A stretch of 64,000 nucleotides of DNA from a virus (taxonomy: Duplodnaviria > Caudoviricetes). Shown here piece after piece: positions 55,014 to 57,546 of the stretch. The notes beneath the pieces were generated by a model, which had not been told where the DNA came from, searched no databases, and saw nothing but the letters and a program-made list of their open reading frames with translations. The translations under genes and the position numbers were made by a program. Every line of letters starts with the position of its first letter. Position 1 is the first letter of the stretch. The DNA lies in IMG/VR virus record IMGVR_UViG_3300048762_000252, positions 1 through 64,000 of that record. One strand, given 5' to 3'.

Positions 55014-55090
55014 TGGAGGGCCTGAAGAGACTTGAACTCTCATTGTCCATTTACGGTATTTCGTTTAGGAAACGAAGCCGGTACAGGCCC
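55014..55090 (-). tRNA. Atypical tRNA-Arg(CCU), no canonical D-arm
   Basis: GGGCCTG/CAGGCCC acceptor + TCCA; TTCGT-TTCCTAA-ACGAA anticodon arm; GAGAG-TTCAAGT-CTCTT T-arm. Confidence 0.8.
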
Positions 55091-55567
55091 CTTCAATACC
55101 CCTGCATGTACTGCACCATGACAATTGTGACAGAGAAGTACGCAACTGTGTAGTTCCTGCTTTATACGCAGCTTCGACCAACCTCGCATGTGCGTAAAAT
55201 TAGGATCTTTCTGAGCGGGATCTGTATGATGAACGGCTAAGGAACACTGAAATTTTTTGTACCCGCAGATACGGCATTTTCCACCTAGAAAGTCTCGTGC
55301 AAATTGTTTTCGCCCTTCACATCGTGTCTTGTTGTAAGTAGCGTGACAAACCATGCACATTGAACGCATCTTGCCATAAAAGCAAGAAGGGTTTTCTTCT
55401 TCACATTGAACACAGAAAAAAGCAGAGACATAGCCGATGGGTCTGGTCCGGTGCAAACCGAAGGGAGAGCATTTAAGGCAATAACGACGTGCGCTAAGAT
55501 TCCTTTTCTTACCAAACACAAATACAAAATTGGGAAAGCAACTTCCACAGTTGTCACAGATCGGCAT
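55040..55567 (-). CDS. HNH endonuclease (tRNA-associated family)
   Basis: GGKCRICGY...LAVHHTDP...CVLLCHNCHGAVH. Confidence 0.85.
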   Translation of the reverse strand: MPICDNCGSCFPNFVFVFGKKRNLSARRYCLKCSPFGLHRTRPIGYVSAFFCVQCEEENPSCFYGKMRSMCMVCHATYNKTRCEGRKQFARDFLGGKCRICGYKKFQCSLAVHHTDPAQKDPNFTHMRGWSKLRIKQELHSCVLLCHNCHGAVHAGVLKGPVPASFPKRNTVNGQ

Positions 55568-55586: not shown

Positions 55587-55665
55587 TGGTATCCCTGACT
55601 GGACTCGAACCAGCATTGATCCATTTACTCGGCTACGCATTAGAAGTGCGTTGAGATACAGGGAC
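55587..55665 (-). tRNA. Atypical tRNA-Arg(UCU), no canonical D-arm
   Basis: GTCCCTG/CAGGGAT + ACCA; ACGCA-CTTCTAA-TGCGT; GCTGG-TTCGAGT-CCAGT. Confidence 0.8.
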
Positions 55666-55671
55666 ATAACT

Positions 55672-55746
55672 TGGTAGACCCGGCAGAATTCGAATCTGCA
55701 TTTTAGCGTTCGGGGCGCTATATCCTTTCCGTTGGATGACGGGTCC
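55672..55746 (-). tRNA. tRNA-Arg(CCG)
   Basis: Full cloverleaf, loop CCCCGAA, encoded CCA. Confidence 0.88.
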
Positions 55747-55752
55747 AAAACT

Positions 55753-55857
55753 TGGTGGAGTGAACGGGAATCGAACCCGCCATCTCTGGCCGAGAATGCC
55801 ACTTTCGCTCGGTGCCAACCGATCCCAACCGCCGATGGCTGGACACGTTTTCACCCC
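55753..55857 (-). ncRNA. tRNA-like RNA with alanine acceptor identity (G3:U70, A73)
   Basis: GGGGTGA/TCACTCC + ACCA; GCGGG-TTCGATT-CCCGT T-arm; non-canonical central region. Confidence 0.7.
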
Positions 55858-55863
55858 AAAACT

Positions 55864-55939
55864 TGGTGGACCGGGTGGGAATCGAACCCACAACTTCTTG
55901 ATTAAGAATCAAGTACTCTGCCAATTGAGTTACCAGTCC
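55864..55939 (-). tRNA. tRNA-Lys(CUU)
   Basis: Canonical cloverleaf, CTTGA-TTCTTAA-TCAAG, CCA. Confidence 0.95.
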
Positions 55940-56240
55940 AAAACTTGTTTGCCTTCTACATTTGCCGTAACATTCCAATCCGGCAAACCATTATTCACAC
56001 CAGCTTGTTTAGCTTTGTGCTTCATCTGGAGCGATACTTCGCTCATTTTCAGCACTGGCTTCACTTGCGGTTCTCTTGCAACTGCTCTACAATCTTCTTC
56101 CAGGCATACGTTGATGTACCCTGGATGGTTTCGGGCGGGAGTAAATTCCTCGCCGCAAATTCTACAAATCATTTTCTTTTCCTTCTGCCGCTCCCGGCTA
56201 AATTCACGGTCACTCAACAGCGACAGCGAAAAACTAAACT

Positions 56241-56314
56241 TGGTAGCCATCCACAGAGTTGAACTGCGATTCTCTGCATGTCATACAGGCGTCCTACCAT
56301 TGGACGAGACGGCC
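56241..56314 (-). tRNA. tRNA-Val(GAC)
   Basis: Cloverleaf with loop ATGACAT, CCA. Confidence 0.8.
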
Positions 56315-56359
56315 ACTTTAAACTCAAACCTACAAAATGCACTAATCATAAATATATTT

Positions 56360-57085
56360 ATGACTTTACTAAAAGAACAAATTCTAAACTTGAGATCAAA
56401 AGGTTATTCATACAACCGCATTCAAAAACAACTTAAATGTTCTAAAGGAACAATATCCTTTCATTGTGGGAAAGGACAAAGAGATAAAACAAATATTCGT
56501 TGTCAAATAAATCGAAAAAAGAATCCCACATTTACATGTACTCATTGCGGGATTGCCTTTCATCGAAAAAAGAGAAGCTCTATTTTTCCAAACAATCCTT
56601 TTTGCTCAGTTGATTGTTTTCGTAATCATCAACAATCTAAATGGAAATGTAAAAAGTGCAATGTTCAAATCAATAAAAGACGATCATATTGCAATCAATG
56701 TCGGAAAAAATACATACGACCACGAGTTGTATCACCATACACATCAACGAAAAGGCACCGTCAACGCATCAAAGAACGGGCCGTAGAATATAAAGGCGGC
56801 AGTTGCGTCGTTTGCGGATATAATCGTTGTCTTCGATCTCTTGAATTTCATCATATAGATCCTAACCAAAAAGATTTCACTATTTCACAAGGTTCTCATC
56901 GATCTTGGAACGATATAATTTCTGAATTAGATAAGTGTATTCTTATCTGCTCCAATTGTCATTGTGAAGTTCATGATGGTATGATTTCAATAGATGATTT
57001 GGTAGTCCCGGCTGGATTTGAACCAGCGACCTCCGGTTTCGTAGACCGGCATTCTGAATCCGCTGAACTACGGGACCACATTTAA
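56360..57085 (+). CDS. HNH endonuclease (tRNA-associated family) with HTH and Zn fingers
   Basis: GGSCVVCGYNRCLRSLEFHHIDP...KCILICSNCHCEVH; CATAAATA 5 nt before ATG. Confidence 0.88.
   Translation: MTLLKEQILNLRSKGYSYNRIQKQLKCSKGTISFHCGKGQRDKTNIRCQINRKKNPTFTCTHCGIAFHRKKRSSIFPNNPFCSVDCFRNHQQSKWKCKKCNVQINKRRSYCNQCRKKYIRPRVVSPYTSTKRHRQRIKERAVEYKGGSCVVCGYNRCLRSLEFHHIDPNQKDFTISQGSHRSWNDIISELDKCILICSNCHCEVHDGMISIDDLVVPAGFEPATSGFVDRHSESAELRDHI
57000..57077 (-). tRNA. tRNA-Arg(ACG)
   Basis: Canonical cloverleaf, CCGGT-CTACGAA-ACCGG, CCA. Confidence 0.95.
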
Positions 57086-57293: not shown

Positions 57294-57546
57294 AAGAATT
57301 GAATCTGCGATAGCAGCCAGCCACACACACAGCACAACGAATGCAATAGCGGGCGCTATCGCTTTCGTTTACTAATGCTCCTGACTCTAATTCGTGTGCG
57401 TGTCATAGTCTTTGCCTTGCCTTTTCGTATTTATACGCCGTGAGAGGGCAGACTACCCCACGGCACTACTTAATGCGCCCTACCAAGGTTTCGGTGACCT
57501 TGATTCATCAGCGGTGAACTGTTGCGTTTCACCAGCTTCATTTACT

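Follow-up and report, generated by a model that had tools for sequence, protein, structure and literature searches.

The tRNA array of a T4-like myovirus contains a 105-nt tRNA-like gene on the minus strand (55753-55857, with the 5' end at 55857 and the 3' CCA at 55753-55755) that is called by neither ARAGORN nor Rfam. It is a real gene derived from tRNA-Ala, with an intact alanine top half, i.e. acceptor stem and T arm, and a scrambled body. Judging from its sequence, the RNA can probably accept alanine without reading codons. The explanation that we prefer, at a probability of roughly 0.4, is a non-decoding alanine acceptor that descends from tRNA-Ala and has been kept for its top half. Coordinates refer to the window, the whole stretch of 64,000 nt that was analysed, and element positions count from the 5' end of the gene.

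Results

The window is part of an IMG/VR contig of 166.6 kb, which comes from a T4-like myovirus and has PHROGs matches to the large terminase, the tail sheath, a gp20-type portal and a gp23-type major head protein. ARAGORN and Rfam place its tRNA array on the minus strand, from about 57300 down to about 55000. The element lies between tRNA-Lys(CUU) upstream (55864-55939, minus strand) and tRNA-Arg(CCG) downstream (55672-55746, minus strand), both called by the two programs, and is separated from each by an identical 6-nt spacer, AGUUUU (55858-55863 and 55747-55752, minus strand). It is thus spaced like the neighbouring tRNAs, as an earlier note on this DNA had stated. The phage encodes no SmpB, no tmRNA and no other tRNA-Ala. 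Two 'rewired' tRNA-Arg genes belong to the same array (55590-55665 and about 55014-55090). They resemble the element in sharing its operon, in combining a non-cloverleaf body with a normal top half and in being missed or poorly scored by gene finders. However, they retain U8-A9, their 7-nt anticodon loop is clean and a D-loop-like segment, UAAAUGGA, is conserved in them; the element shows none of the three.

Ahead of the array lies a leader ORF of 16 codons, MTRTRIRVRSISKRKR (57355-57405, minus strand), whose Arg, Lys, Ile and Val codons match tRNAs of the array and which has no Ala, CGG or AUA codon. A 449-codon plus-strand ORF drawn over the tRNA genes (55736-57085) was dismissed as an artefact, with the real HNH start at 56360. 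The HNH endonuclease encoded there (56360-57085, plus strand, 241 aa, phrog_2255) ends antisense within tRNA-Arg(ACG), and a second HNH gene occupies 55040-55567 on the minus strand.

The acceptor 5' strand GGGGUGA (positions 1-7, 55851-55857, minus strand) pairs perfectly with UCACUCC (positions 95-101, 55757-55763, minus strand), including G3:U70, and is completed by the discriminator A73 and an encoded CCA (positions 102-105, 55753-55756, minus strand). The T arm GCGGG-UUCGAUU-CCCGU (positions 78-94, 55764-55780, minus strand) has G.U as its outer pair. Read on the minus strand, the perfect 7-bp acceptor with G3:U70, A73, CCA and the T arm are as the earlier note had claimed, and its assignment of an alanine identity to the top half is confirmed on the sequence; the alanine marks are G1:C72, G2:C71, G3:U70, G4:C69 and A73. 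A G3:U70 pair in an acceptor/T minihelix suffices for AlaRS, and the alanine minihelix, an acceptor-T stem helix with G3:U70, is a known synthetic substrate of this enzyme. The element has all sequence features of such a substrate, namely G3:U70 in a 7-bp acceptor helix on a T stem, A73 and CCA. We searched the 64-kb window for the top-half signature (7-bp acceptor, 5-bp T stem, TTCRANN loop, NCCA) and obtained eight matches, all within the minus-strand array, and none in 100 shuffles. Since the signature is confined to the array and absent from all 100 shuffles, and given the ends of the element, its gene-like nature is beyond doubt.

The 70 nt between the two halves fold in several ways. Hairpin 1 (positions 15-34, 55824-55843, minus strand) has a stem of 6-7 bp, which includes CCAGCC/GGUUGG at positions 16-21/28-33, and the loop AUCGGC; in a tRNA it would be an extra arm. 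It occurs as a single copy in the window and was rejected as a repeated mobile palindrome. The D-arm-like hairpin 2, UCGG-UUGGCA-CCGA (positions 36-49, 55809-55822, minus strand), and CCGAG/CUCGG (positions 46-50/64-68) are mutually exclusive. All three hairpins described in the earlier note were therefore found. A 10-nt tandem duplication, CGGUUGGGAU / CGGUUGGCAC, spans positions 27-36 and 37-46 (55812-55831, minus strand); its copies are identical at 8 of 10 positions, which 107 of 5000 shuffles (2%) also reach. Each copy carries GUUGG, resembling the D loop of an ordinary tRNA-Ala (GUUGGGA, GUUGGCA), and GAGCG follows. Directly before the T stem lies the 10-nt segment GCCAGAGAUG (positions 68-77, 55781-55790, minus strand), an over-long variable loop if the element is taken as a tRNA. 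Folded without constraints, the element is no stabler than shuffles (z = -0.97). With the top half enforced, three hairpins, a rod and a cloverleaf with an extra arm all lie within a few kcal/mol. Positions 8-77 are free of stop codons in every frame, so the middle has no tag frame; the earlier note had likewise given its mini-tmRNA option as one without a tag ORF.

Core tRNA residues are absent: the acceptor stem is followed by AA instead of U8, which every neighbouring tRNA has, and there is no A14. The link from the acceptor to the D-like stem is 28 nt long, compared with 2 nt in a tRNA, and the segment before the T stem 10 nt, compared with 4-5 nt. ARAGORN made no call on the element, whether introns were allowed or not, and the Rfam tRNA model (RF00005, 29 bits) gave no match to it in the window, in a 900-nt region or with the element alone. 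When the Rfam check proposed in the earlier note was run, tRNA and tmRNA models matched nothing beyond fragments of the T arm and 3' end. The statement of that note that a canonical D/anticodon arm is lacking thus holds for gene finders. It is not absolute, because both the D-like hairpin (36-49) and a candidate anticodon hairpin, CGAAA-GUGGCAU-UCUCG (positions 51-67, 55791-55807, minus strand), can be drawn. The latter has one A.C stem mismatch and presents GGC (55798-55800) in the 7-nt loop GUGGCAU (positions 56-62), with U33 before and A37 after the triplet. Deletion of positions ~8-33 lets ARAGORN report a tRNA-Ala(ggc) with its default threshold. As a control, 400 shuffled middles were put through the same scan; 47% were called as a tRNA of some kind and 10% as tRNA-Ala, so that the rescue is no proof of a tRNA-Ala(GGC).

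Compared with a canonical tRNA-Ala(GGC) (RF00005), the element shares the acceptor and T arm, the GUUGG motifs, a possible GGC hairpin, the location in a tRNA operon and the encoded CCA. It differs in its length of 105 nt, the missing U8/A14, the ~26 nt more from acceptor to D-like arm and the 10-nt variable segment, and it stays under the Rfam and ARAGORN detection thresholds. Among the loci fetched, we also noted other odd tRNA genes. Three tRNA-like genes of 129-137 nt on a 377-kb phage contig (L008:13306-13441, 13553-13681 and 13852-13988) were all missed by ARAGORN. Their acceptor and T arm are normal, a hairpin of 6-7 bp with a loop of 3 nt replaces the D arm, the variable region is ~60 nt long, and the anticodon arms, for Lys CUU, Gln UUG and possibly Tyr GUA, are clean. 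Two 59-nt genes resemble a D-armless tRNA-Ala(UGC) with an acceptor stem, the anticodon arm CUUGCAA and a T arm (L215:2614-2672, L247:5909-5967). Alanine tRNAs with odd D regions that ARAGORN missed occur in L080, L210, L258, L165 and L228.

We compared the element with RNAs that consist of the tRNA-like domain (TLD) of tmRNA only. A covariance model, R1, was built from an alignment, A1, of 15 such phage RNAs (L186, L266, L276, L233, L277, L253, L235, L248, L273, L217, L191, L209, L207, L257 and L255). It scored the element at 23.8 bits and ordinary tRNAs at 25-31 bits in the same search. The alignments of Rfam tmRNA models were limited to the T arm and 3' end and scored 10-17 bits, compared with gathering scores of 47-84; the best scores came from tmRNA_permuted (17.5 bits, gathering 47) and beta_tmRNA (14.3 bits, gathering 84). 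Like the TLD-only tmRNA of mycobacteriophage DS6A and the 62-68-nt class in A1, the element is phage-encoded, carries G3:U70, A73, CCA and a T arm, and has no anticodon and no tag frame. Unlike them, it has neither GG..UCGAC as a D-loop analogue nor GAC ahead of the T stem, its 70-nt middle forms several hairpins instead of one short P2 hairpin, and the model fails to separate it from tRNAs.

Homologue searches, with near-identical relatives of this contig set aside, covered IMG/VR, JGI metagenomes, species genomes and GenBank phages, and the middle was conserved nowhere among them. GenBank phages gave no match to the element. Four pattern scans of IMG/VR, for the exact acceptor, for the 3' end of tRNA-Lys plus GGGG, for the motif GCGAAAG..CAGAG and for the GUGGCAU loop, returned no relative with a preserved middle, and the scan for the tRNA-Lys 3' end plus GGGG found mostly permuted tmRNA genes. 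The metagenome scan yielded L368/L370 and L369, which share the acceptor stem by design; comparison of their middles with that of the element gave p = 0.16 to 0.76. The motifs in common with L368, CGA(A)GCGAAAG and CCAGAG, were not significant and were rejected as a family mark; CAGAG-type strings are probably the usual anticodon-stem/variable-loop sequence of tRNA-Ala. Since none of the homologues retains the middle, its folds have no covariation to support them. The genome scans either came back empty or led to odd, unrelated tRNA-like genes of bacterial MAGs. In MAGs of Patescibacteria, Phycisphaerae and Peribacteria, such genes (L423:4210-4234, L424:810-834 and L425:458-482, each with ~60-110 nt upstream of the match) combine the T arm of the element with an acceptor stem GGGGUGG/CCACUCC and have no ARAGORN call. 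The arrays of the cultured relatives Atu_ph04, RpAliso and Phosso hold no similar element.

The gene is also absent from the closest related array, L003 (protein 72% identical), and the whole records of 40 further relatives contain no alanine-type 3' end. In the related phage L005, a 44-nt minihelix (L005:14808-14851) lies 7 nt past a tRNA-Lys(CUU) that is 79% identical to the upstream neighbour of the element. It has the same T stem, 9 nt between the halves, G3:U70, A73 and CCA. The two top halves are identical at 28 of 35 positions (80%), and the six differences in the acceptor amount to three compensatory pairs; between the two phages, canonical tRNAs are 63-86% identical and the anchoring protein 51%. 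This level of identity and the compensatory pairs indicate that the top half evolved like a working tRNA stem, with both lineages lacking a decoding body. The L005 array also contains a hairpin+CCA remnant with a 7-bp stem and a T-loop-like cap, not of alanine type (L005:13208-13239), and a tRNA 5' fragment that lacks its 3' half (L005:13412-13449), which we take as signs of ongoing tRNA gene erosion.

Further look-alikes come from unrelated phages. A 48-nt alanine minihelix (L342:286-333) has a top half identical to that of the element at 33 of 35 positions, with a mismatch at pair 7:66, and the T stem recurs identically in both L005 and L342. Natural phage alanine minihelix genes also occur at L221 and L126. 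The element shares their top half and differs from them in the 70-nt insert between the halves, the L005 minihelix being syntenic. L342 is a small phage contig with five tRNAs, on which a 132-nt alanine-type element (L342:417-548) follows ~85 nt beyond the minihelix, with CCUGAGAUGG before its T arm; the string CC(A/U)GAGAUGG thus precedes the T arm there as well as in the element. In L368, a 106-nt alanine-type element that is not a tRNA has the same acceptor stem as the element. The array around it (L368:3960-6548, and L370; two metagenome copies, 99.6% identical) has its own normal tRNA-Ala(UGC) as well as a full tmRNA (tag DEDYFEDRLAA), so such elements substitute for neither. In total, about 95 distinct non-tRNA elements of alanine type were present among the loci fetched.

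T4 species 1 RNA (rnaC), a stable RNA from the T4 tRNA cluster, resembles the element in being a stable-RNA gene in a T4-type tRNA cluster with a T arm, paired ends and a non-tRNA middle. However, it is 139 nt long and has no G3:U70 alanine identity, and the similarity between the two is confined to the T arm. Homology to rnaC or rnaD was rejected (middle of the element compared with rnaC, p = 0.51; with rnaD, p = 0.99).

Discussion

From what is known of tRNA processing, the RNA of the element would be co-transcribed with the tRNAs of the array, cut by RNase P at G1 and trimmed to the CCA. Alanylation of the RNA by host AlaRS would follow, as this enzyme needs no more than G3:U70 in an acceptor/T minihelix. 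EF-Tu would be expected to bind the charged RNA. Lacking a reliable anticodon arm, this RNA would not be selected on sense codons. We propose that it could serve as an anticodon-independent alanine acceptor or decoy, acting via proteins that recognise a tRNA by its top half alone. Candidates for such proteins are AlaRS, EF-Tu and processing enzymes, as well as enzymes or toxins directed at the acceptor end. As for the 70-nt middle, it may be dispensable baggage from a duplication plus an insertion.

Two other readings give the RNA a function. The earlier note had suggested a mini-tmRNA. In this reading the RNA would be a tRNA-like domain alone and, by binding SmpB and EF-Tu of the host, would obstruct or modulate ribosome rescue; such a role has been proposed for the DS6A RNA. 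The alanine acceptor, A73, CCA and T arm do resemble tmRNA ends, a helix GCCAUC/GAUGGC could close the middle beside the T arm like P2 of tmRNA, and TLD-only tmRNAs are common among the phages of IMG/VR; a molecule similar to that of mycobacteriophage DS6A inhibits tmRNA when expressed in E. coli (PMC4131195, PMC11915505). However, the P2-like helix overlaps two T-stem pairs, the TLD motifs are absent, the R1 score falls below those of tRNAs, no tmRNA model matches past the T arm, and the phage has no SmpB, tmRNA or other tRNA-Ala, so the element is no recognisable mini-tmRNA and a role as an SmpB decoy is very improbable. The very deviant tRNA-Ala(GGC) that the earlier note also offered is, among its options, the one nearest to the sequence, but GGC sits in a different, 7-nt loop. 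Such a tRNA would read GCC/GCU with ~26 extra nt: an extra 20-nt hairpin would replace U8-N9 after the acceptor, followed by the D-like arm (36-49), position 50 as the equivalent of G26, the anticodon arm (51-67, loop G-U-GGC-A-U), the 10-nt variable loop and the T arm. E. coli tRNA-Ala(GGC) likewise has U33, A37 and U38 in its anticodon loop, which the candidate loop resembles. The ARAGORN call after deletion fits the acceptor identity and suggests an origin from tRNA-Ala(GGC). The phage encodes no other tRNA-Ala, 'rewired' arginine tRNAs share the array, and odd tRNAs bearing anticodons exist elsewhere (the three genes of L008 and the D-armless Ala(UGC) genes of L215 and L247). Against this, a rival hairpin with the anticodon UCU lies at the canonical distance from the T arm, the cloverleaf is ~6-9 kcal/mol costlier than other folds, and the layout recurs in none of the homologues and includes the A.C mismatch and the 10-nt variable loop. 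The codon-matched leader ORF has no Ala codon, a weak point against a decoding role. Because of the shuffle control, the UCU hairpin and the missing U8/A14, we hold the GGC reading as possible only and consider a working tRNA unlikely.

More probable than these is a decaying tRNA-Ala pseudogene, in which recent duplication and insertion wrecked the D and anticodon region and the top half is merely uneroded; its RNA may still be processed and charged, without selection for it. The earlier note had named an unconserved middle, consistent with an insertion-damaged pseudogene, as the outcome that would speak against it, and this is largely what we found: the middle is unique, it holds the 10-nt tandem duplication, which looks like an accident, and the L005 counterpart is bare, with 44 nt remaining. 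Debris of a tRNA-Ala D loop is present twice (GUUGGGA, GUUGGCA), along with GAGCG, the fold is no better than that of shuffles, and the gene is missing from L003 and the 40 other relatives. Plain tRNA debris in related arrays, such as the 5' fragment and the second hairpin+CCA remnant in L005, means that decay is common there. On the other hand, this reading needs two independent recent losses of the lower half, in the element phage and in L005, and both top halves are perfect, with three compensatory acceptor pairs, despite an anchoring protein that is only 51% identical. A nearly identical top half stands alone in the unrelated L342, and a phage genome seldom retains 105 bases of no use within an operon. 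The flawless signature, the array spacers, the compensatory changes in L005, the lone top half in L342 and the presence of such elements beside genuine tRNA-Ala and tmRNA genes would thus argue for selection on the top half, and the unconserved middle, z = -0.97, the absence from relatives, the accident-like duplication and the debris nearby would argue against it. The two readings are close; we regard decay as the somewhat less probable account and prefer the non-decoding alanine acceptor.

If the top half is under selection, phages make alanine-chargeable RNAs that neither decode nor are mini-tmRNAs, and this would suggest an as yet unknown way of using or attacking the part of translation in which tRNAs are recognised by the acceptor end alone. 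If the element is merely a decaying tRNA-Ala, it is a footnote on the erosion of arrays by duplication, insertion and collapse to a minihelix. Under either reading, gene finders miss such genes, and censuses of phage tRNAs and tmRNAs therefore under-count. The element is mainly another case in a wider, poorly described set of phage alanine top-half RNAs. Tentatively, the element and the L005 minihelix may be maintained members of a broad, essentially undescribed phage class that consists only of an alanine-accepting tRNA top half and would act, without an anticodon or SmpB signature, on a host or defence component reading acceptor ends.

Other alanine-type genes were noted among the loci. 'Family B' comprises genes of 95-97 nt (L356:2588-2682, L155:6026-6121, L077:11301-11397), or of 87-97 nt when L369:194-280 is included. 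Between acceptor stem and T arm they form three hairpins, of which the first has GG in its loop; they have no 7-nt anticodon loop and no tRNAs nearby. The element was rejected as a member, as the covariance model R2 gave it 27.7 bits with a misplaced 5' end, compared with up to 33.7 bits for ordinary tRNAs. Phage genes of 62-68 nt that consist of the tRNA-like domain of tmRNA only are plentiful in IMG/VR. In these genes an invariant G..UCGA in the D-loop analogue is followed by one hairpin; GA(C/U) or CAC is conserved immediately ahead of the T stem, and the T arm is followed by ACCA. Their number suggests that this class is far commoner than the lone published DS6A case. A permuted tmRNA gene with the tag ANAPAFAFAAAA is located at 1433-1774 of L414 (G004:181760-184784), in a 405-kb jumbo phage that is related via a phrog_1017 protein.
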